From a phage, in the sequence record PZ379176.1: 64,000 nt of DNA. One strand, 5' to 3'. The notes beneath the pieces were generated by a model. The model made no database searches and was not told the DNA's origin. It saw nothing but the letters and a program-made list of their open reading frames with translations. The stretch's first letter is position 1. Every line of letters begins with the position of its first letter. This document shows positions 47,965 through 58,002 of the stretch, piece by piece. The position numbers were made by a program, and so were the translations under genes.

Positions 47965-50900
47965 TCACTCCTTAGGTCGAACTCTTACACGGAGTCTCGA
48001 TTGACGCTTACTGCGTTCAAGCTTCTCTGACAATGAGCCACGTTTAATCTTCGGCTTCCCTTCGTCATTAAACTTCTCCAAGAACTGCAAGTACTCAGTA
48101 CGATTCGTTGTCTTGTAAGAAGGAATCTTAATATCAGGGTTCTCTTCAATTACACGTCTCATCTTCGCTACATCATCCCTACCAAGCAACTTACTCTTAG
48201 CCTGTTCAGCTGTAGAACCAAAGATCTTCTCCAGTGCTCTGGATTTGTTACCACCTGCGGAAGAAGCACCAAGTTTAGCAATGGCAGAGTAATCATCAGC
48301 ACTAAACCAAGCTACCGGATTATCACCATACTTCTTCTTGTTTTCAGCAGCAGTCTGCAATGCACGTACAAAGCGACGGTTGTTACCAGCCTTATCTGCA
48401 CCATGAACCCTGTCTAAAACTTCAGCCACACTAGCCAACTCATCCAAGCTCTTCCCACTCAAGAAAGCTTTCTCTACTTTATCAGCAAAAACCTCTTCCT
48501 GTTGTTTAATGCTTTCCAAGATATCAGAATTTGCTTGAGATCTTTCATCATCAGGCAGAGCAGAACGAATCTTCTCCATCTCCAACTCTTCCTCTTGCAG
48601 TTTCTTAATATCAGAGTCAACCTTCTGAGCCTCCTCAATAGCCTTCCTAGTATCCGCATCCAAGTTATCAAGTTTACCTTCAGTATCTCCAGTAACCTTA
48701 ACAATCTCTTTCTCGATAGGAGTCATTGATTCGTACTTCTTAGCGAACTTCTCAACATCAGCCTCAATACGAGAGCGAGCATTCTGATGTTCAGTTGGAG
48801 TCATAGGCTTCTCGAGAAGTGCATAACGGTTATCCATATAGGAACCAGCAAACGCTTCAGCATCCTCTCTAGATATGCCCTTATCTTCCATAGTACGCAT
48901 CAGGCGGCGATGAATATCATCACGTTGACGTTGTACTGCCATAAGATCATTCTCACGCTCTTGGGCCGCTTTAAGCTCTTCACTGCGCTTAACTCTCTTG
49001 TCCACATCAAACTTGCGGTTCATCTCTTCCGCTTGCTCATACATCTTGTTCCACTTAGCCTGACGAGCATCTTCCTCTGCATCAGTTAAACGACGCTGAC
49101 GATCAAGGTAGTCTGACTCGGCGTTATGGATACGTTCAATGTAACTACGGAACTTCTCTGGAGGAACTGGAGAGTTCTTATCGTGGTGAGCAGCCAACTG
49201 TTTCAGTGTACGAGATTCCTGAGCCTCACGAACAGGTTTAGGTAAACCTTCCATCATCTTCTCAATCTCACTCTTCTGAGCTGCAATAGCCTCTAGAGTT
49301 TTACGTTCATTCTCAACAGCAGCTTTAGCATCCGAACGAGCCTGAGCCTTTTTCCTGAGTGTAGCAAGACGTTCTTCACGAGCCTGTAAATGCTTAGCAG
49401 CAGCTTCGTACTGAGAGTTCTTGTTAGCTTTGTTGAAGGCATTCACTTCTCTGTTATAGGTGTTAATAAACCCATCCCAAATATCCTTCATCTGACCAAC
49501 TTCCAAAGCCTCTTCCCTACCAGCCTTCTCTGAAGATTTAAACTTTCCATCTACAAAGTCATTCATCAATTTACGCATAGCGTCTTTCTGAGCAGGACGT
49601 AAAGGTTCTGCATCAATCAAAGTATCAATCTCAGACTGAAGCTCTTTCTTCTGGTCAACCAGCTTAGGAGCATTCTTGTTATCGAAAGCTTTATTCTCTT
49701 CTAGAGCTTGTTGGTACAGTCTATCAAACTCATCTTCACGCTGCTTCTGATACAACCTTTCAGCACGACGTTTCAGACTATCCAAGTTAGTTACGTTCCC
49801 ACCTAAACCTTTCTCTTCAGCACGTAATGCCTTAGTAGCAATGTCTTCTGGCAGACCACGTTCTTTAACCCATTCAGCAAAGTTAGTTCGTACAGTGTTG
49901 TTCTTAGCAGTAGCAATACCTTGCTGAGAAGCCAGCTGGTTACGAGCCATTTCTTCATGACGTTCAGTGTTGATAGCATTATCTTCCTGACGAATACGAC
50001 GCATCAGTTCCTTAGGATCACCTTTATAGGCCAAGAAGTTTTCAGCAGTAGCTTTAGCTTTAGCAGCCTTAGAGTACAGAGAACGAGCAAAACGTTCTGC
50101 ACGATCTTTAGTAGCCTGACGAGCAGCACTAGACATAGCAGCTAAACGTTCTACACCACTTGCCGGTTTAACGTCCTGTACAGCTTCCTTAGGAGCTTTA
50201 GGAGCACGAGCAGGTAATGGCTCAGCTTTGACTGTTGGTTCCTCTACGGTTGGTTCTGGAGCCTGTGCGGCCTCTTCTTGAGCACGTTGCTGTTCCATTG
50301 CACGACGCTCCTCTAGAGGGTTACGAGCAGGGAGAGGTTCAGCCTGTGGAGTTTGTTCGACCGGAGCTTCTTGAGCAGCCAATGCCTCTTCTTCAGCGCG
50401 ACGCTGTTCAGCCTGACGGATAGCGCGTCTTTGCGCAACTAAATCACGAGCTGTAAGAGGAGTTTCTTGAGGAGCAGAAGAAGGAAGATTTTCTTCCGTC
50501 ACAGTACTAGAAGAAGGCTCCCGAACCGGTTCGGTTTCCACGTCATTTTGCGTCTTAAATTTAATGTCATCAACAACTGGTTCTTCTTCCATTTTAGCAC
50601 GAGCTTCATCAGCAGTAGATTTAGCACGAGCAACTTCCAAATCACCACGAGCAAGAGAGCGGATAGCTTCGCTGTTAGATTCTTGTTGCTTAACACGTTG
50701 AGAGCGAGCACGCTGAGAAGAGAAGCGATTCAGAGCATACTTAGCAGCACCAAGAGTGTTCATTACCAGACTAGGTGAAGAAGCCTCACGGAATCCATCA
50801 TCAGTCAGGGAAGTCCAACCACGGTCTTGATTGCTCATGAACTTAGCTGTATTGTTCAGAGTGTAAGCATCTTGAATAGGATTAAAACCTTCAGGCATAC

Positions 50901-52386
50901 CTTTCAGTTTCTTCAACCCACCAATAGCTTTCTTCATCTCTGGAGAAACATTATCAGCCATCTTCTGTAGTTCAGCAGCTTTCTCTACAAAGTTGTTAAA
51001 GTCTTCACCATCACGAGCTTTGAATCGATTTGCTTCATTATAGAAAGTCTTGTAAGCATCAATGAAGTCACGGTCGGCTTGTGTACGATTCTTAATATCA
51101 ATCGGACTACCAGTAAAATCACCAGAAGCTCGGAGAGAGGTTAATTCACGGTCTAGATTATCTAGAACATCTGTAAGAGCTTTCGTGTTGTCTTTGGTGT
51201 AGTCAGCCATTGCATCCTTCATAGCAACAGCCTGCTTCTGGTTGTGCTCGTTATCAGCGAATGCTTTACCACGAGTCTTAGCAGGAGAAGCTAAAGGGTT
51301 GAGGCCCGGAATGTTGGAATGTTCTTTCTGAACGGAAGCAGCTTTCTCAGCACGAGCTTGGTCAGTATTAAGAATACGCTGAGCGGCAGGAGAATCTACA
51401 GCAACAGCATCTGTAATACGGAATCCATTCTCATCCAGAAGGTTCAGAGCAGAAGCAGCGTTAGCAGTTTCAGCTTTAGAGTAAGCTTCTTTCAATTCAT
51501 CAATATTCTTAGCACTACGAATCAGTTCATCATCAGCAGCAATATCGGTCTTCGCATACTCTGGAGTGTTCTTGAAGACAGCAGAATCCGGACGGCTAAT
51601 CAAACCATGAACCCCACCAACTGCACCACCGAATGCAGCACCCATAGCACCTTCTTCGATAGCACCCTCTAATACATTAGCAAAGGTTGTATCATCTCCA
51701 TGCTTGTTCTGAGCTTCAGCAGCACCTACAAGAGCACCACCTTTAGCACCAGCCACTGCGTTAGTAGCAACGTTCTGACCAATACGTCCAAGTGTGGACT
51801 CAGCTGTACCAACAGCGCCCGGAAGGATTCTCTGAGCCGCATAGTTAGCACCACCAACCAAGGCTGCATCTAGAATAGATTTATCTTCCCCCTCTTCAGG
51901 GGTTTGGTCTGCATATGCACGACCTGTCTCACGACCTGCGATGATAGCAGCAGCAGCCAATGGGTTAGCAACAGTCATACCAATATCACCAGCAACGCCA
52001 GCATACTGACCTACAGTTTTACCAATCCCATCCTCAATCTTATCCATACGTTCTTTCAGAAGATTCTGAGAGTTCTCTTGGATACGCTTACCATAACTAG
52101 TTTGTGCTCCAGCTAGATTCTCACCAATCTCAACTAAACCACCAATACCTTTAGCAGCACTAGCTGCAATATTTGCACCACCAGATTGAAGAGCATTTGA
52201 CACACCTTGAGCAAACTCACCTATAGCACCACGTTCTTCTTGTTGTGGTTGTGCTACTGGCTGTTCCTCAGGAATAGAGCCACCTGCTGCCTTATATTGT
52301 TCTCTCATTTGAGCTTGTTGCTCCGGAGAGGCATTCAGATACGCAGGAGCTTTGGAAGCTTCTTCCCACGGTTTAATGTTAGCCAT
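47965..52386 (-). CDS. large internal virion (core/ejection-type) protein, about 1470 aa
   Basis: Gly/Ala-rich hydrophobic N-terminal segments then long Ala/Glu/Lys/Arg coiled-coil; likely start ATG 52386 with SD AGGAG. Confidence 0.55.
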   Translation of the reverse strand: MANIKPWEEASKAPAYLNASPEQQAQMREQYKAAGGSIPEEQPVAQPQQEERGAIGEFAQGVSNALQSGGANIAASAAKGIGGLVEIGENLAGAQTSYGKRIQENSQNLLKERMDKIEDGIGKTVGQYAGVAGDIGMTVANPLAAAAIIAGRETGRAYADQTPEEGEDKSILDAALVGGANYAAQRILPGAVGTAESTLGRIGQNVATNAVAGAKGGALVGAAEAQNKHGDDTTFANVLEGAIEEGAMGAAFGGAVGGVHGLISRPDSAVFKNTPEYAKTDIAADDELIRSAKNIDELKEAYSKAETANAASALNLLDENGFRITDAVAVDSPAAQRILNTDQARAEKAASVQKEHSNIPGLNPLASPAKTRGKAFADNEHNQKQAVAMKDAMADYTKDNTKALTDVLDNLDRELTSLRASGDFTGSPIDIKNRTQADRDFIDAYKTFYNEANRFKARDGEDFNNFVEKAAELQKMADNVSPEMKKAIGGLKKLKGMPEGFNPIQDAYTLNNTAKFMSNQDRGWTSLTDDGFREASSPSLVMNTLGAAKYALNRFSSQRARSQRVKQQESNSEAIRSLARGDLEVARAKSTADEARAKMEEEPVVDDIKFKTQNDVETEPVREPSSSTVTEENLPSSAPQETPLTARDLVAQRRAIRQAEQRRAEEEALAAQEAPVEQTPQAEPLPARNPLEERRAMEQQRAQEEAAQAPEPTVEEPTVKAEPLPARAPKAPKEAVQDVKPASGVERLAAMSSAARQATKDRAERFARSLYSKAAKAKATAENFLAYKGDPKELMRRIRQEDNAINTERHEEMARNQLASQQGIATAKNNTVRTNFAEWVKERGLPEDIATKALRAEEKGLGGNVTNLDSLKRRAERLYQKQREDEFDRLYQQALEENKAFDNKNAPKLVDQKKELQSEIDTLIDAEPLRPAQKDAMRKLMNDFVDGKFKSSEKAGREEALEVGQMKDIWDGFINTYNREVNAFNKANKNSQYEAAAKHLQAREERLATLRKKAQARSDAKAAVENERKTLEAIAAQKSEIEKMMEGLPKPVREAQESRTLKQLAAHHDKNSPVPPEKFRSYIERIHNAESDYLDRQRRLTDAEEDARQAKWNKMYEQAEEMNRKFDVDKRVKRSEELKAAQERENDLMAVQRQRDDIHRRLMRTMEDKGISREDAEAFAGSYMDNRYALLEKPMTPTEHQNARSRIEADVEKFAKKYESMTPIEKEIVKVTGDTEGKLDNLDADTRKAIEEAQKVDSDIKKLQEEELEMEKIRSALPDDERSQANSDILESIKQQEEVFADKVEKAFLSGKSLDELASVAEVLDRVHGADKAGNNRRFVRALQTAAENKKKYGDNPVAWFSADDYSAIAKLGASSAGGNKSRALEKIFGSTAEQAKSKLLGRDDVAKMRRVIEENPDIKIPSYKTTNRTEYLQFLEKFNDEGKPKIKRGSLSEKLERSKRQSRLRVRVRPKE

Positions 52387-52424: not shown

Positions 52425-52433
52425 TATACATTA
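52425..52433 (-). promoter_or_regulatory. TAATGTATA motif on minus strand (candidate late promoter element)
   Basis: TATACATTA on plus strand, about 40 nt upstream of ATG 52386. Confidence 0.4.
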
Positions 52434-52453: not shown

Positions 52454-54109
52454 TTATTGAGTGAACCAGCTCGTATCTTCAACAGCTGATAGAGCACCAT
52501 TAAGCTTAGGATTGGTTGCTGCACCACCAACCGCTTCTTCTGCTTGTTCAGAGAAAACACCTAGAGGGTCATAGAAACCACCAGAAGGGATTGCACGGTT
52601 GACCAATGCAGTAGCTCTCTTCTTATCCATACCAGAACCAATGTAAGCTTCAATCGTAGCTCTCTTAGCATCAGCAACACCTTTCATTGCAGAGGTATGA
52701 CCAACGTTAGCTTGCTTACGAGCATAAGCAAGAGCAGAATCAGTAGGACGCCATCCAGACTTCAGTGCAAACTTGTTGCCAACACGAACGAAGATTGACG
52801 GGTCTTCTGCAAAGTGCCCCAAGTCTTCTTCGGTAAGAGAACGAGTAGCACCGATTTCAGCCCTTGCGGAGTTCATGATAGCTTGCATGTAAGCAGAACG
52901 AGCTGTCTGATAGTCTTTATCCTTAACAGCCTTATCAGCCAAATCCAAGTCTTTATTAGACTGGTTAAACAGGCCACCTTTCTCTGCCCACTGCTTAGCA
53001 ACCGTACCTTCAGCTGTATTCTGAGCAAGACGAACTTCTTTCGGGTTAAAGTTAAAACTCTGAGCAGCTTGTTCAGCACGTTCAGCCTTGACTTGATCAC
53101 GATACCCAATCAACTCTTTCTGACGTTCAAAGTTCATATTAGCCCTTTCTTCAGCAGCACGACGAGTTTCCTCAGCACGCTCACGCATAGTCTGCTCTTG
53201 AATCTGTTGACGTCTATCCCATTCAGCATTTTGTCGTTCTTCACGAGCAGCATACAGCGCTTCTTTCTGAGCAGGGTCTACAGCTCTCATCTTCAGTAGA
53301 GACGGGTCTCCGTTAGCAATAGCAGCTGCAATCGAGTCTTGAGAGAAGCCTTGTTCAATCAGAGCATCACGGTTAGCTTCCAGTTGCTTCTTAGTCTCAT
53401 CTTGATTAGCCATTCCCTGACCAATCTGGAAAGCTTCAATAGGAGACTTACCTGACATAATGGAAAGACCTACACCCATCAAACCTGTGTAGAAACTGGA
53501 GTTTTGGTAGAATGGTTCTTTCTGTAGTTTGTTCCAAGCTTCCGAAGGGTCTTTAGCTTTCGCAACTTGCAAGATATCGTTGTTAACACGTTCCTGATCT
53601 TTAGCACGAGTAGCAGCAGCCATTCCATCACCAGTGTCTTGTCCTTGAGCAAGAGTATTAATCACACCCTGTGCCTGTTCCACCTGAGAAGGAGTAAACT
53701 CCATAGGACCAGCTTCTAGTGGTTTAGGAGGAGGTGTTACCGGAAGAGGGCCACTAGGCATAAGCCCAGCATCCTGTAAACCTTGATCAGTGGATAGGTT
53801 AGGATTAGCTGATACAGGGGCCGGTGCTCCAATATCAATACCCTGAAGACTGGTAGGAGTTCCTTGATTCTGCTGTTCCATAAGACGTTGCTGGAATCCC
53901 GGATTAACCATAGCATTCTGATCTTCCTCTGCCTGAGAGACAAGACCCGCAAGAGATGAAGGTACAGCAGGACGTTGATACATAGAAATATCTGCTGTCT
54001 GAGTAGGTCTAGCCATATAAGGAGAGGCCGAAGCCGCTCCCGGATTAACACCATAGAAAGTATTTCTCGGGTCACGACTTCTGACCTGAGCGTAAGTTGT
54101 CTGTTGCAT
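52454..54109 (-). CDS. internal virion protein (551 aa)
   Basis: ORF track; Pro/Gln-rich N-part, charged helical centre. Confidence 0.5.
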   Translation of the reverse strand: MQQTTYAQVRSRDPRNTFYGVNPGAASASPYMARPTQTADISMYQRPAVPSSLAGLVSQAEEDQNAMVNPGFQQRLMEQQNQGTPTSLQGIDIGAPAPVSANPNLSTDQGLQDAGLMPSGPLPVTPPPKPLEAGPMEFTPSQVEQAQGVINTLAQGQDTGDGMAAATRAKDQERVNNDILQVAKAKDPSEAWNKLQKEPFYQNSSFYTGLMGVGLSIMSGKSPIEAFQIGQGMANQDETKKQLEANRDALIEQGFSQDSIAAAIANGDPSLLKMRAVDPAQKEALYAAREERQNAEWDRRQQIQEQTMRERAEETRRAAEERANMNFERQKELIGYRDQVKAERAEQAAQSFNFNPKEVRLAQNTAEGTVAKQWAEKGGLFNQSNKDLDLADKAVKDKDYQTARSAYMQAIMNSARAEIGATRSLTEEDLGHFAEDPSIFVRVGNKFALKSGWRPTDSALAYARKQANVGHTSAMKGVADAKRATIEAYIGSGMDKKRATALVNRAIPSGGFYDPLGVFSEQAEEAVGGAATNPKLNGALSAVEDTSWFTQ

Positions 54110-54122
54110 ATTTATCTCCTAA

Positions 54123-55091
54123 TTAAGTACTAGCCAACCCACCGATTACACCCCCAGCTAATGCACCCCAAGGTCCAAAGGAAGAGCCACCTGCTGCACC
54201 ACTCATAGCTCCACCAAGGAAACCACCTTTGCCACCAGATGTTTTAGTAGTTGTAGTTTGTCCGAGAGCACCGTTAAGTACACCTGCTGCACCGAGTTGG
54301 TTATTGATATCTTGCCATCCCCAATTAGCTGCGTTCTGAGCATTCTGGTAGGCATTATCATATTCATTCTGTTGTTGCTGTTGTTGCTGCAACCCTGCAT
54401 TCCATTGATTCATTATTTGCTGTTGAGACAAATTAGCACCCTGCTGACCTAGGTTAGAAAGGTTAGAACCAATATTAGAAAGACCAGAGAGAGCAGCTGC
54501 CTGATTCTGTCTATTACCAGAGAGGATGCTTTCAGCTTGGCTGATAGCCGAGTTATATGCACTATTGGTAATATCTGTTGCTTGCCCTTGCATCTGATTC
54601 AGAGCATCACCTTGGGCAAAAGATTTAGCCATACGAGCACCTGAACCCTGCTGACCAGCATACTGTTGAGCTAACTGAGGAAGAGCATTACGTGCCAAGT
54701 TCTGTTGAACCTGTTCATTATTAGCTGTAATGGCTGCTTGCACAGCGTCATCATCATACAGTTGACCAGCGAGAGCACCAATCTGTTCTCCAGTAATCCC
54801 ACCTTGTCCAGAGAGGCTCTGATAGCCTTTATAGGCATTATCCAGATACCCTAACCCTTGACCTGCTGCATCCATGTATTGCTGTGAGAGAGTGCCCAAA
54901 GCGCCAGATTGTGCTAGGTTATTAAGTGCCTCTGTCTGATTGTTATTAAACCCTACATTGTCACGATAGACATAATCCCCTGAACTAGTATTACCAATCT
55001 GTTGGTTAAGCTGGTCAATATACTGTTGAATGTATTCAGGGCGAATCATTTGGGAAGTAGTTTTACTACCCCCGCCTCCGAAAAGTCCCAT
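54123..55091 (-). CDS. Gln/Asn/Gly-rich low-complexity virion protein (paralog 1)
   Basis: Q/N-rich with QQQQQQQ run and Gly-rich C-terminus; resembles adjacent ORF. Confidence 0.5.
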   Translation of the reverse strand: MGLFGGGGSKTTSQMIRPEYIQQYIDQLNQQIGNTSSGDYVYRDNVGFNNNQTEALNNLAQSGALGTLSQQYMDAAGQGLGYLDNAYKGYQSLSGQGGITGEQIGALAGQLYDDDAVQAAITANNEQVQQNLARNALPQLAQQYAGQQGSGARMAKSFAQGDALNQMQGQATDITNSAYNSAISQAESILSGNRQNQAAALSGLSNIGSNLSNLGQQGANLSQQQIMNQWNAGLQQQQQQQNEYDNAYQNAQNAANWGWQDINNQLGAAGVLNGALGQTTTTKTSGGKGGFLGGAMSGAAGGSSFGPWGALAGGVIGGLAST

Positions 55092-55103
55092 ATCAAATCT
55101 CCT

Positions 55104-56156
55104 TTAGTTTGCTCCAAATGCCCCTAAGACACCACCTAAGATATTACTACCTGCTGTGGATAACCAGTTAGACTGACCTCTCTGTTGAGAAAGATTAGAA
55201 CCACCAATCATAGGACCAGCCATTCCAGATTGCCCACCTGAGTTGTTATAGGAACTCCAAGCATTCTGAGTCTGTTGATTAGGAGAGAAAGCACCCATAC
55301 GACCTGCAATACCTAATCCAGTGATACCAGCACCTAGGAGCTGTTGTCCAGTATTAACCCCCGGAGCAGCATTCTTAATCGTGTACCCAGCCATTGGGCT
55401 TACACTATTTAATACATTAAGTTGGTTGTTAAGCTGATTCCACCCATACTGTTGAGAGCCAATAGCGTTCTGCCAATTAATATCAGCTTGAGCTTGGGCT
55501 TGTTGCTGTTGTAGATTACCAGCCATGAGTTGATTCTGGATAGCTTGTTGAGTTGCCTGAACACCTTGAGCACCAAGATTGAGATTCTGTCCAGCCAATC
55601 CTGACTGAGCACCAAGTAAGCCCCTCTGGAAGTTTTGGTCTTGTTGAAGAGCACTGATTCCCATATTCTTGCCACTGATAGTACGAGCTAAGTTTGTATT
55701 AGCACTGTTCAGAGCAGCACCTTGAGCAGCAGCTCTACGGAGAGAGCCTGAATCAGAACCATTTCCGAGGGATACATTGGAAGCTGCCTTACTAGTCGCT
55801 TGAGCAAGAGCTGAGTTATTCAATCCTTTACTAAAGTTATTAACACCATCAGCAGTTAGACCACCACCATTGACAATATTCTGATACTGCTGTGCAAGAG
55901 AATTTAATTGGTCCAACCCTTGCTGTGTACGAGGCGTGTACATATCAGCCAATTGCTTCTGAGTAGTAGAAGCTGCTAAGTTGTTCAGAGCACCCTGTTG
56001 GTTGCCATTAAACCCAGCCAGTTGTTGGGAGATGAATCCCGGATCGTTGTTCTGCATATTCTGAGCATTAGCAACAATCTGCTTCAGCAGGGCATCAACC
56101 TGAGAGGAAGGGGCCACTGTGGTTTTGCTAGAAGCTGATTTTCCAAATAAAGACAT
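55104..56156 (-). CDS. Gln/Asn/Gly-rich low-complexity virion protein (paralog 2)
   Basis: Similar composition and Gly-rich C-terminus. Confidence 0.5.
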   Translation of the reverse strand: MSLFGKSASSKTTVAPSSQVDALLKQIVANAQNMQNNDPGFISQQLAGFNGNQQGALNNLAASTTQKQLADMYTPRTQQGLDQLNSLAQQYQNIVNGGGLTADGVNNFSKGLNNSALAQATSKAASNVSLGNGSDSGSLRRAAAQGAALNSANTNLARTISGKNMGISALQQDQNFQRGLLGAQSGLAGQNLNLGAQGVQATQQAIQNQLMAGNLQQQQAQAQADINWQNAIGSQQYGWNQLNNQLNVLNSVSPMAGYTIKNAAPGVNTGQQLLGAGITGLGIAGRMGAFSPNQQTQNAWSSYNNSGGQSGMAGPMIGGSNLSQQRGQSNWLSTAGSNILGGVLGAFGAN

Positions 56157-56175: not shown

Positions 56176-56958
56176 TTACTTTACACCAATGCTAGCCAAA
56201 CGTCTGAGCACTGCTTGTGTTTGTGGACTGTACTGAGAACCTGCTGCATGTGGTGCACTTGCCCTCTGAACTGTTTGAGAAGTCGGAGGTTTACCAGCAA
56301 GCATAGCAGCTACACCTAATACTGCATTACCAAAGTTCTGTTGAGGCTTCTGATCTTCCCCTTCCTGCACTTCATCAGAGTAAAACTCTACTGGATTTCC
56401 TCCTAAAGCACCTGTCTTAGAAGCAGTAATGTCTGCCTGAGTTGGAGCTTGTGCGGCTTTCTCTCTATCTAACAAGTCAGGACTAAACTGATTGACTGGT
56501 TGAACAGCTTGCAAAGCTCCAACAGGGTTAGCAATCTGAGAAGCTGCATCACCATAGAAAGGAAGAAAGTGTTTATTGTTCATGGAGTCAAGAGCTTGTG
56601 GAGTAAATCCCTTTTTACCAGCGAACATTTGCTTAGCACCACCGATACCTTCTGAGTAACCAACCATTGCTTTCTTAACATCACCATTAAAAGCCTTTAA
56701 GTTATCTCGAATATAACGAGCACCCATATCAATATTCTTTGCTGGGTCAAGTCTGTCTTCTAGTTTGTAGCCGTAGTCTTTAGCCAACCCTTTACTGATC
56801 TGCATTAAACCTACAGGACCAGTTCCAGAAGCCACTGTAGGACGACCACTAGACTCCCTTTGGATTACAGCATGAATCAAAGCAGCAGGAATCCCATACT
56901 TCTTTGAAGCCTGTTGAACCATTGGGTCTAGTTCTTCAATACCCATCTTAATTGCCAT
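56176..56958 (-). CDS. soluble lytic transglycosylase (SLT) domain protein
   Basis: IHAVIQRESSGRP...GLMQISKGLAKDYGY matches the SLT catalytic-Glu region. Confidence 0.7.
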   Translation of the reverse strand: MAIKMGIEELDPMVQQASKKYGIPAALIHAVIQRESSGRPTVASGTGPVGLMQISKGLAKDYGYKLEDRLDPAKNIDMGARYIRDNLKAFNGDVKKAMVGYSEGIGGAKQMFAGKKGFTPQALDSMNNKHFLPFYGDAASQIANPVGALQAVQPVNQFSPDLLDREKAAQAPTQADITASKTGALGGNPVEFYSDEVQEGEDQKPQQNFGNAVLGVAAMLAGKPPTSQTVQRASAPHAAGSQYSPQTQAVLRRLASIGVK

Positions 56959-56970
56959 AATATCTCCTTG

Positions 56971-58002
56971 TTATAGTCCAGCAAAAACCTTAGCTGCATT
57001 TATTACAGGAACTGATAAATTAACTACAGTATCAGCTCCTAGGTCGTAATTTTGATCCCACTGAAACAGATATCTTCCATAGCCAGTTCCTATGCTAGAG
57101 CCACTCATTGTGTGAGATCTCATTTGCTGATATCTCCACCCACTACCTCGACCTTTTATTGCACCTATTCCAGAAGTAAGAGGTATCATAGGATATGCCA
57201 TACCAGTGTTGCCCCCTCCCGAACCAATAAAATTGTCTACAGTGAAAGGTGTTCTATTAGTAGAGAAGACACATTGAGTTGTCCCAGGAGAATATATGTT
57301 TAACCCACCATTATGCTCAGGAACACCAGCTCCGTTACAGAACACAGCGACTCTAACAAAGACAGAACCACCTTCGTTAGTGTTACCATTGACATAAGGC
57401 CTATTCTGATAGACTCGAATAACCCTATCATCAGATGTGTAAGATAAACCGATCCCTCCATCAGACCAATTAGCAAACACAACAGCATTGGTCATATTGA
57501 ACCCACCAATATTTGGTATCTGAAGGGAGTTGTTTATGGTCCCCTGCCAAGCCCAAATACATTGACCAACAACCCCACTATCAGAGATTGAGAAATAATC
57601 TGCTGTATTTGAGAAAGTGATTCCATAGTTTCTGTCAGCTCTAGGCCATATTTGGTATACGTTGAACCCACAGTCAAATAGTGGGTTACTACCGGGATTC
57701 TGGTTCAGAGTCACCCTAAAAGATGAGTTATTTTCTACATAGATGTTATTTACACAATAAACATCAGGGACTAAGTTAGGAGGGACTTCCCATTGCCAGC
57801 ATAGAGAACCAGTAGGAACAATAACTATCTGACCGCTACCATCCCATCCACTAATAGGGAAAGATCTCCCTGCTCCGTTAAAGTTAAAACTCCCTCTTAT
57901 ACTATTTTTGAACTGAGGGAAAGTGCTTCCACTGTCTATAAAAAGAGGGGCTGGTGTAGCTGGTCCCGGCCCTACTGGTTGTGTCCAAATTCCATATGCC
58001 AT
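56971..58002 (-). CDS. virion structural protein (343 aa)
   Basis: ORF track; Gly/Asn/Ser-rich; position in late block. Confidence 0.5.
   Translation of the reverse strand: MAYGIWTQPVGPGPATPAPLFIDSGSTFPQFKNSIRGSFNFNGAGRSFPISGWDGSGQIVIVPTGSLCWQWEVPPNLVPDVYCVNNIYVENNSSFRVTLNQNPGSNPLFDCGFNVYQIWPRADRNYGITFSNTADYFSISDSGVVGQCIWAWQGTINNSLQIPNIGGFNMTNAVVFANWSDGGIGLSYTSDDRVIRVYQNRPYVNGNTNEGGSVFVRVAVFCNGAGVPEHNGGLNIYSPGTTQCVFSTNRTPFTVDNFIGSGGGNTGMAYPMIPLTSGIGAIKGRGSGWRYQQMRSHTMSGSSIGTGYGRYLFQWDQNYDLGADTVVNLSVPVINAAKVFAGL

Follow-up and report, generated by a model that had tools for sequence, protein, structure and literature searches.

What do two neighbouring genes with an unusual amino acid composition, placed in the virion block of a lytic coliphage, contribute to the delivery of its genome? 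The question is raised by the genes at positions 54,123 to 56,156 of a 64,000-nucleotide (nt) stretch of phage DNA, taken from sequence record PZ379176.1 and referred to here as the window. An earlier note, made from the letters alone, had suggested that their products, of 322 and 350 amino acids (aa), are disordered, possibly phase-separating or channel-lining ejection proteins which form a heteromeric pair. At the DNA level, the region shares 94-96% identity with phiEco32, SU10 and some 70 further coliphages of the genus Kuravirus (Gordonclarkvirinae), and the window is a phiEco32/SU10-like Kuravirus. As we show below, the two proteins correspond to published ejection proteins of this genus, they are conserved paralogs of each other, and on balance we lean towards reading them as duplicated and enlarged subunits of the P22 gp7/Bruynoghevirus gp56 type, which would start the trans-envelope DNA channel at the outer membrane.

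The first part of the answer comes from the orthologs. Over its whole length, the 350-aa protein is 97.1% identical to SU10 gp21 and 99.4% to phiEco32 gp23, while the 322-aa protein is 99.4% identical to SU10 gp22 and 98.4% to phiEco32 gp24; lengths and gene order are the same as in the window, and we find no substantive difference. The late operon is also ordered as in SU10 and phiEco32, with the SLT gene, the pair, and the genes for a protein of ~550 and another of ~1,470 aa. Mirzaei et al. (2014) detected SU10 gp21 and gp22 in phage preparations by liquid chromatography-tandem mass spectrometry, at 53% and 49% coverage (PMC4281155), and Siborova et al. (2022) list both (350 and 322 aa) as 'in virion: yes', with positive mass spectrometry (MS; PMC9509320). 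In the latter work, SU10 gp20-24 were found by MS in virions and were absent from genome-release intermediates, the cryo-electron microscopy (cryo-EM) maps contain no density for any of the five ejection proteins, no residues of gp21 and gp22 were modelled, and unassigned density lies within the barrel of the portal (PMC9509320). A 2023 review of the genus gives the SU10 proteins the same assignment. Transferred by identity from these 97-99% identical orthologs, for which it was shown, the assignment makes the pair the published ejection proteins, which travel in the head and leave it together with the genome. The core idea of the earlier note, ejection proteins in a virion block, is therefore correct but was already known from SU10, where the proteins are present in virions and not, as would have counted against the idea, absent from them. 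Annotations are less uniform: in RefSeq and PHROGs the name is 'DNA ejection protein' (phrog_4287), the PHROGs category being 'DNA, RNA and nucleotide metabolism', and elsewhere they appear as 'hypothetical' or 'DNA injection protein'.

The two proteins are related to each other. They align over their full length with 29% identity (BLASTP with composition-adjusted statistics, E=3e-12), and both match phrog_4287 (E=1.4e-117 for the 350-aa and E=3.4e-109 for the 322-aa protein), which confirms the duplication proposed earlier. Both carry an N-terminal MxLFGG..SKTT..P motif, a G-S-x..R...AQG-ALN loop, a W-Q-N...W-x-Q-(L/I)-N-N helix, a TTT..SGGG linker and a glycine-zipper C-terminus. In alignments of homologs down to 35-45% identity, 14 columns are invariant in the 350-type and 25 in the 322-type, and the ratios of nonsynonymous to synonymous substitution rates (dN/dS) against SU10 and phiEco32 (0.04 for the 350-aa and 0.05-0.08 for the 322-aa protein) are as low as that of the adjacent SLT gene. 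Both paralogs are under strong purifying selection and are not free low-complexity sequence. They are also inherited together: a five-gene cassette, encoding an SLT protein and proteins of ~334-350, 322, ~500-560 and 1,100-1,490 aa in this order, recurs down to ~40% identity. It is present in L010, a divergent phage contig of 86 kb from a metagenome, with the pair at 43% and 52% identity, and in positions 1-20969 of L008, an E. coli chromosomal contig of 389 kb (DAHCAP010000002.1, GCA_023211535.1), with the pair at 39% and 42%; ten further pairs of 350-type and 322-type homologs lie on contigs of matching size. Even deep divergence has therefore not separated the pair.

The composition that first drew attention to the locus is real. 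Gln, Asn, Gly, Ala and Ser (QNGAS) make up 63% of the 350-aa and 62% of the 322-aa protein, compared with 31-42% of eight neighbouring late proteins; the Shannon entropy is 3.63 and 3.66 bits, compared with 3.97-4.16 in the same neighbours, and charged residues amount to 7% and 9%. The 322-aa protein has runs of seven Gln (Q7, aa 235-241) and GGGG, the 350-aa protein has QQQQ and GGG, and both C-termini are Gly-rich and hydrophobic. The two open reading frames (ORFs), their positions, their poly-Gln runs and their placement between the SLT gene (56176-56958) and the ORFs for the large internal proteins of 551 and 1488 aa are as the earlier note described them. Its low-complexity label, by contrast, holds for composition and fails for structure, given the many columns that stay invariant at 35-45% identity and the lack of any repeat structure beyond Q7. 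Within Q7 a single Gln is invariant among homologs and the rest vary, in a Gln-rich helix that is itself conserved; at the DNA level, no repeats were found in the pair apart from the CAA/CAG stretch that encodes it. The low complexity of both proteins is compositional only.

What fold could such sequences adopt? From shallow alignments and with low confidence, AlphaFold2 (AF2) predicts near-continuous helices over residues 18-252 and 19-275, followed by a non-helical C-terminal tail, with breaks at the conserved G-S loop (residues 128-136 of the 350-aa and 145-149 of the 322-aa protein). L130, G131 and R140 of the 350-aa protein, in and near this loop, are nearly invariant in the family. The C-terminal glycine-zipper hairpin is the most conserved block of the 322-aa family, and aa 285-321 of the 322-aa protein contain 10 overlapping [GAS]xxxGxxx[GAS] motifs. 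The layout differs in the 350-aa protein, in which such motifs occur at aa 276, 337 and 341, and two zipper segments stand ~40 Q/N/G-rich residues apart, with no PWG turn; the columns of the first segment are nearly invariant in the family, and its motif recurs in long fused homologs. Net charge separates the two types as well: it is negative (-2 to -10) in 27/27 sequences of the 322-type, and has a mean of +4.5, with 16/20 sequences positive, in the 350-type. Direct searches with the two proteins gave little. Pfam returned no credible match (its sole listing was 'Muted', E=0.26), NCBIfam returned chance-level matches only, and among PDB sequences, in a copy that has no entry for P22 gp7 itself, neither protein alone nor the 322-aa family profile gave a match with E below 0.55. 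Foldseek of the 322-aa AF2 model against the PDB found only generic long helical hairpins (E>1), which we take as meaningless.

Comparison of profiles was more informative. The 322-aa family profile matches LUZ24 gp53, from a Bruynoghevirus, with an hhalign probability of 94.6% (E=6.6e-8, score 59.6, ~213 columns), whereas 100 shuffles of the target scored 14.0 +/- 2.7 (maximum 25.2), a z of ~17. As negative controls, T7 gp13, gp14 and gp15, P22 gp20 and gp16, and LUZ24 gp49 and gp52 were compared with the family profiles by hhalign, and all stayed at noise; for T7 gp14 the probability was 0.1% with both profiles. LUZ24 gp53 is a 313-aa 'phage particle protein', similar in size to the pair and about twice as long as T7 gp14, and has in common with the 322-aa family a GGSK..KTTS..P.Y N-terminal motif, a TTSSGGG linker and a glycine-zipper C-terminus; it differs in being present as a single copy and in having an N-terminal extension of ~25 aa. 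The gene order is likewise comparable, with gp53, gp52, gp51 (505 aa) and gp50 (1,055 aa), the last two being virion proteins, against 350, 322, 551 and ~1,473 aa in the window. The 551-aa and 1488-aa window proteins have no significant similarity to LUZ24 gp51 and gp50 by BLASTP, so homology of the whole cassette with that of Bruynoghevirus depends on the small protein and on gene order. Judged by length, position and genus, LUZ24 gp53 is apparently the counterpart of Pa223 gp56, which a 2025 preprint on Pa223 proposed to be an unusually large 'gp14-like' outer-membrane channel, from a MemBrain transmembrane prediction and an AlphaFold3 nonamer. The same preprint found the tail hubs and adaptors of Kuravirus and Bruynoghevirus to be each other's closest structural relatives.

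A second, weaker match leads to P22 gp7. The 322-aa family profile aligns with an alignment of gp7 homologs at E=4.6e-5 (hhalign score 40.4, against 14.5 +/- 2.5 and a maximum of 22.8 for 100 column shuffles). With relaxed maximum-accuracy settings (MAC), the alignment is collinear to both C-termini: '...SSFGPWGALAGGVIGG' of the 322-aa family pairs with '...GSSTPWGAAIGGGIGLL' of gp7, the hairpin at aa 286-322 falls on the gp7 C-terminus ...GSSTPWGAAIGGGIGLLGSLF, and GPWGALAG stands opposite TPWGAGIG, so that the glycine-zipper pair around the PWG turn reads GGFLGGAMSGAAGGSSFGPWGALAGGVIGGLAST in the 322-aa protein and AIGGGASGAIAGAGLAKLIGSSTPWGAAIGGGIGLLGSLF in gp7. The invariant G-S loop aligns with the invariant GGLGST of gp7. 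This has a structural meaning in P22, where a 2026 in situ cryo-EM preprint describes mature gp7 as twelve helical hairpins assembled on the hexameric tail hub, with neighbouring chains alternating between two conformations, gp7-o and gp7-i. According to that preprint, the 'fingertip' at the hairpin turn (residues 90-126), in which GGLGST lies, wedges between hub subunits, a network of Gln/Asn/Tyr/Ser hydrogen bonds holds the 24-helix bundle together, and the V-shaped C-terminus places two helices in the outer membrane, the pore being formed by 24 gp7 and 12 gp20 helices. P22 gp7 has almost the same composition as the pair (58% QNGAS, 10% charged), which therefore gives the odd composition of the Kuravirus proteins an ordinary structural explanation, and gp7 is also the first small gene of its ejection operon. 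There are differences too: (i) gp7 has 229 aa, so the Kuravirus proteins would have ~90-120 extra helical residues; (ii) gp7 carries a 20-aa N-terminal propeptide that is cut by host OpdA, while the Kuravirus proteins begin about where mature gp7 starts; and (iii) P22 makes two conformers from one gene, where Kuravirus has two genes. Membership of the pair in the gp7 family is unproven, and the resemblance is nevertheless specific.

Operon order gives this comparison a wider frame. Small membrane-type protein(s), a ~500-aa and a >1,000-aa protein follow one another in the window as they do in P22 (7-20-16), T7 (14-15-16) and LUZ24 (53-(52)-51-50). T7 gp14 and gp73 of the N4-like phage DEV occupy the same functional slot and operon position, being small membrane-active alpha-helical proteins that are expelled first and make bilayer pores; they differ in having half the size (~150-196 aa) and fewer Gln and Asn residues (13% Q+N in T7 gp14). 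The channel-lining role suggested earlier agrees with the distant relationship to P22 gp7 and LUZ24 gp53 and with the zipper hairpin at the C-terminus, and the channel role itself is so far only inferred.

Several observations weigh against assigning both proteins to this type: (i) the 350-aa family profile by itself matches neither LUZ24 gp53 nor P22 gp7 in hhalign, so the gp7-type assignment of the 350-aa protein depends on its paralogy to the 322-aa protein; (ii) the hhalign probability of the gp7 match is just 68.5%, and the Pfam family of gp7, PF25688, which is found in all gp7 homologs, is absent from both proteins at E<=1; (iii) the outer-membrane role of Pa223 gp56 is itself a bioinformatic proposal; (iv) the AF2 monomers have a mean predicted local distance difference test score (pLDDT) of only 41 and 37, so a helical hairpin is not established for the pair; (v) the C-terminal 44 aa of the 322-aa protein stay far below threshold in the glycine-zipper Pfam families PF13441, PF05433 and PF13488 (Gly-zipper_YMGG, E=0.15, 12 bits against a gathering threshold of 28.9; Glycine zipper 2TM, E=0.2; Gly-zipper_Omp, E=6), and the C-terminus of the 350-aa protein matches none of these families; (vi) the maximum hydropathy of the pair is modest, 0.93-1.16; and (vii) membrane insertion, oligomeric state and mutual interaction of the pair come from inference and not from experiment.

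If the pair is nevertheless of the gp7/gp56 type, a mechanism can be proposed. After loss of the tail needle, both proteins would exit through the portal-nozzle channel and, on reaching the nozzle tip, fold anew into long alpha-helical hairpins, which would line up next to one another to form a barrel. Their Gln and Asn side chains would supply a hydrogen-bond network between subunits (polar zippers), the low charge would suit a membrane-proximal setting, and Gly, Ala and Ser would allow the tight packing of glycine-zipper membrane helices. The conserved hairpin tip (G-S-x...R...AQG-ALN) would dock on the six-fold nozzle, and the C-terminal glycine-zipper helices, with GxxxG repeats and, in the 322-aa protein, the PWG turn, would enter the outer membrane and make an alpha-helical pore there. 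Peptidoglycan would be cut by the SLT protein, whose gene lies upstream, and the 551-aa and ~1,473-aa proteins, encoded downstream, would extend the channel through the periplasm and the inner membrane.

How the paralogs would share this work is a separate matter. Their strict co-occurrence, the conserved opposite net charge and the shared hairpin-tip motif make a heteromeric pair, as the earlier note had it, plausible, and the two probably belong to one assembly, whether they take turns around a single ring or make rings nested inside each other. One tentative form of this idea, which we put forward with considerable doubt, is that the acidic 322-aa and the basic 350-aa proteins alternate 6+6 in a hetero-dodecamer on the six-fold nozzle, both contributing zipper helices to the pore, so that two genes would fix what P22 achieves with two gp7 conformers. 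The conserved charges would fit nested or stacked rings equally well.

Of the other explanations, the one that survives best, while still unlikely in our judgement, divides the labour: the 322-aa protein alone would be the gp7-like outer-membrane anchor and the 350-aa protein would make up a ring of its own, coaxial or stacked, either as a lumen liner or membrane-proximal chamber, as the gp20 N-terminus does in P22, or as a basic collar that binds lipid A or lipopolysaccharide phosphates, as proposed for DEV gp73. That only the 322-aa profile matches LUZ24 gp53 and P22 gp7 is what one would expect from such an arrangement, as are the different C-terminal layout of the 350-aa protein and its conserved positive charge next to a negative partner; moreover, the P22 outer-membrane pore is built from two different proteins, and Grimontviridae, Lahexavirus and Bruynoghevirus have a single copy. 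Both paralogs, however, keep the MxLFG...SKTT and hairpin-tip motifs, which suggests that they contact the same partner.

A purely in-head role, in which the proteins would associate with the core or portal barrel, organise or retain the DNA end, have no membrane function and be released incidentally, seems to us decidedly improbable. The P22 E proteins do stabilise the portal barrel and occupy capsid volume (discussed in the Pa223 preprint), and the unassigned density in the SU10 portal barrel would accommodate this reading, but it is difficult to see why a DNA organiser should have low charge and conserved hydrophobic C-termini with glycine zippers, and a role before ejection is compatible with a channel role, both of which coexist in P22 and T7.

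Least probable of all is that the pair are prion-like, disordered Q/N-rich polypeptides acting as a condensate, lubricant or plug in the capsid or channel instead of a folded wall: although their best 80-aa windows hold 35 and 34 Gln/Asn residues (the usual 'Q/N-rich' criterion is at least 30 per 80), pLDDT is very low and the SU10 virion maps show no ejection-protein density, the selection on both genes is as strict as on the neighbouring SLT enzyme, many columns are invariant or nearly so and conserved in register, the Q-rich stretches are predicted, with low confidence, to be helical, the Q-rich helix is conserved and the poly-Gln run is not, and the homology is to proteins that form ordered helical barrels, as P22 gp7 does. 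Absent density is common to P22-type ejection proteins, and its absence in SU10 therefore says nothing specific about condensates; inside the capsid the pair may still lack resolved density or be partly unfolded. The disordered, possibly phase-separating state suggested in the earlier note finds no support in these data. The features discussed above and the neighbouring genes are collected in the table.

Table. Coordinates in the window of the Q/N/G-rich pair, of the segments discussed and of the other genes of the cassette.
Feature	Position	Strand	Basis or remark
350-aa Q/N/G-rich ejection protein, paralog A	55104..56156	(-)	ORF; ortholog of SU10 gp21, phiEco32 gp23; net charge +7
322-aa Q/N/G-rich ejection protein, paralog B	54123..55091	(-)	ORF; ortholog of SU10 gp22, phiEco32 gp24 ('DNA injection protein'); net charge -8
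Predicted hairpin tip, 322-aa protein, aa 149-165, GSGARMAKSFAQGDALN	54597..54647	(-)	G149 and S150 invariant; AF2 break at 145-149
Equivalent hairpin-tip motif, 350-aa protein, aa 133-150, GSDSGSLRRAAAQGAALN	55707..55760	(-)	Aligned with the 322-aa motif by BLASTP
C-terminal glycine-zipper hairpin, 322-aa protein, aa 286-322, GGKGGFLGGAMSGAAGGSSFGPWGALAGGVIGGLAST	54126..54236	(-)	Predicted membrane-inserting V-shaped two-helix element
First glycine-zipper hydrophobic segment, 350-aa protein, aa 272-290, QLLGAGITGLGIAGRMGAF	55287..55343	(-)	Top hydropathy segment, KD19 1.16
Second glycine-zipper hydrophobic segment, 350-aa protein, aa 331-350, WLSTAGSNILGGVLGAFGAN	55107..55166	(-)	Hydropathy and motif scan; conserved in close homologs
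Q7 run, 322-aa protein, aa 235-241	54369..54389	(-)	Within conserved Q-rich helix
260-aa SLT lytic transglycosylase, first cassette gene	56176..56958	(-)	Pfam SLT, E=1.3e-23; 98% identical to SU10 gp20
551-aa ejection protein	52454..54109	(-)	phrog_12130; 95.5% identical to SU10 gp23
~1,473-aa giant ejection protein	47965..52386	(-)	phrog_14629; 97% identical to SU10 gp24

Both genes of the pair have an AGGAG-type Shine-Dalgarno sequence 6-9 nt 5' of their ATG, and the intergenic gaps around them are 12-19 nt. Their ancestry is mosaic: by synonymous divergence (dS), the 322-aa gene is nearer to SU10 (dS 0.057) than to phiEco32 (0.130), and the 350-aa gene is nearer to phiEco32 (0.065) than to SU10 (0.312). 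Such opposite affinities imply a recombination junction in or close to the 12 nt that separate the two genes.

The other cassette proteins have orthologs with published virion evidence (PMC9509320; PMC4281155): SU10 gp20, the ortholog of the SLT protein, is a virion and ejection protein, and SU10 gp23 and gp24, orthologs of the 551-aa and the giant protein, occur in the virion and are no longer there once the genome has been released. From gene order only, the 551-aa protein is a candidate subunit of the periplasmic tunnel, and the giant protein a candidate inner-membrane or cytoplasmic subunit. The ORF of the giant protein (1488 aa) has its first ATG at 52431, without a Shine-Dalgarno sequence, while AAAGGAG lies 6 nt 5' of the ATG at 52386; a start at 52386 gives 1,473 aa, as annotated for SU10 gp24 and phiEco32 gp26, and is probably the true one. 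Near its N-terminus the giant protein has glycine-zipper-like hydrophobic segments (aa 143-168 and 253-280, KD19 up to 1.49), with weak Gly-zipper_OmpA/YMGG matches (E=0.02-0.1); the table of the SU10 authors labels gp24 'Nuclear Pore Complex' (PMC9509320). Directly upstream of the SLT gene, positions 56971-58002 (-) encode a 343-aa protein that matches DUF6453 (E=1.7e-25) and phrog_1265 ('membrane protein / moron'); because the gene lies in the tail/ejection block and is conserved in L010, a virion role seems more fitting than the annotated one.

Beyond Kuravirus the family takes other forms. The element in the E. coli contig L008 encodes SU10-type major capsid and portal proteins, a terminase, an SLT protein and proteins of 334, 322, 498 and 1,113 aa, its cassette proteins being 25-42% identical to those of the window in BLASTP local alignments, and it has the appearance of a prophage-like relative of the kuraviruses, which are strictly lytic. 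A single family member of ~410 aa is found in the C3-morphotype Grimontviridae (GAP52, SE131, Privateer) and in Lahexavirus. In the Grimontviridae members (GAP52_022, L004 8974-10206; SE131, L007 8986-10224; P0125), the second zipper tail is replaced by a basic C-terminal extension; this extension gives, at aa 328-383 of the protein, a borderline match to Pfam Peptidase_S74, the endosialidase intramolecular chaperone (22.1 and 20.5 bits, the cut-off being 22; E=1e-5 in P0125), which is unexpected for an ejection protein. The tail-fibre or coiled-coil reading prompted by this match was rejected: no such domain occurs in the window proteins, whose orthologs are gone from the virion after the genome has been released.

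An exhaustive hidden Markov model search found 390 relatives at E<1e-3, many of them proteins of 850-1,650 aa that have this module as their first ~300 residues. Dozens of metagenomic proteins of 650-1,650 aa (P0144, P0145, P0146, P0151, P0154 and P0174 among them) start with the ~300-aa phrog_4287 module, including its glycine zipper 'GGTSSTTSPGPS..LGQVAGAGLTGLGILG', and continue with long Pro/Gly/Ala-rich linkers and further domains; one has an SLT domain at 635-725, and one phage match is annotated 'internal virion protein D'. These long proteins appear to be fused ejection proteins.

The general function of the pair was already known from SU10, and its outline is unchanged by our analysis. 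What we add is incremental: the paralogy of the two proteins and their conservation as a pair, evidence against disorder, a link to gp53/gp56, a tentative link to gp7 and the conserved asymmetry in charge, through which the heteromer idea becomes testable. The practical value lies mainly in better annotation, together with a hypothesis for SU10. The 6+6 ring, if true, would give phage ejectosomes their first obligate hetero-oligomeric outer-membrane channel and provide a worked example of gene duplication resolving a symmetry mismatch. More broadly, the trans-envelope DNA conduit of short-tailed phages is an active structural question in T7, P22, DEV and Pa223. In the kuraviruses the nozzle has been solved and the five ejection proteins have not been placed; the link to gp7 and gp56 explains the odd composition of two of them without invoking disorder and gives the pair a concrete, testable role.

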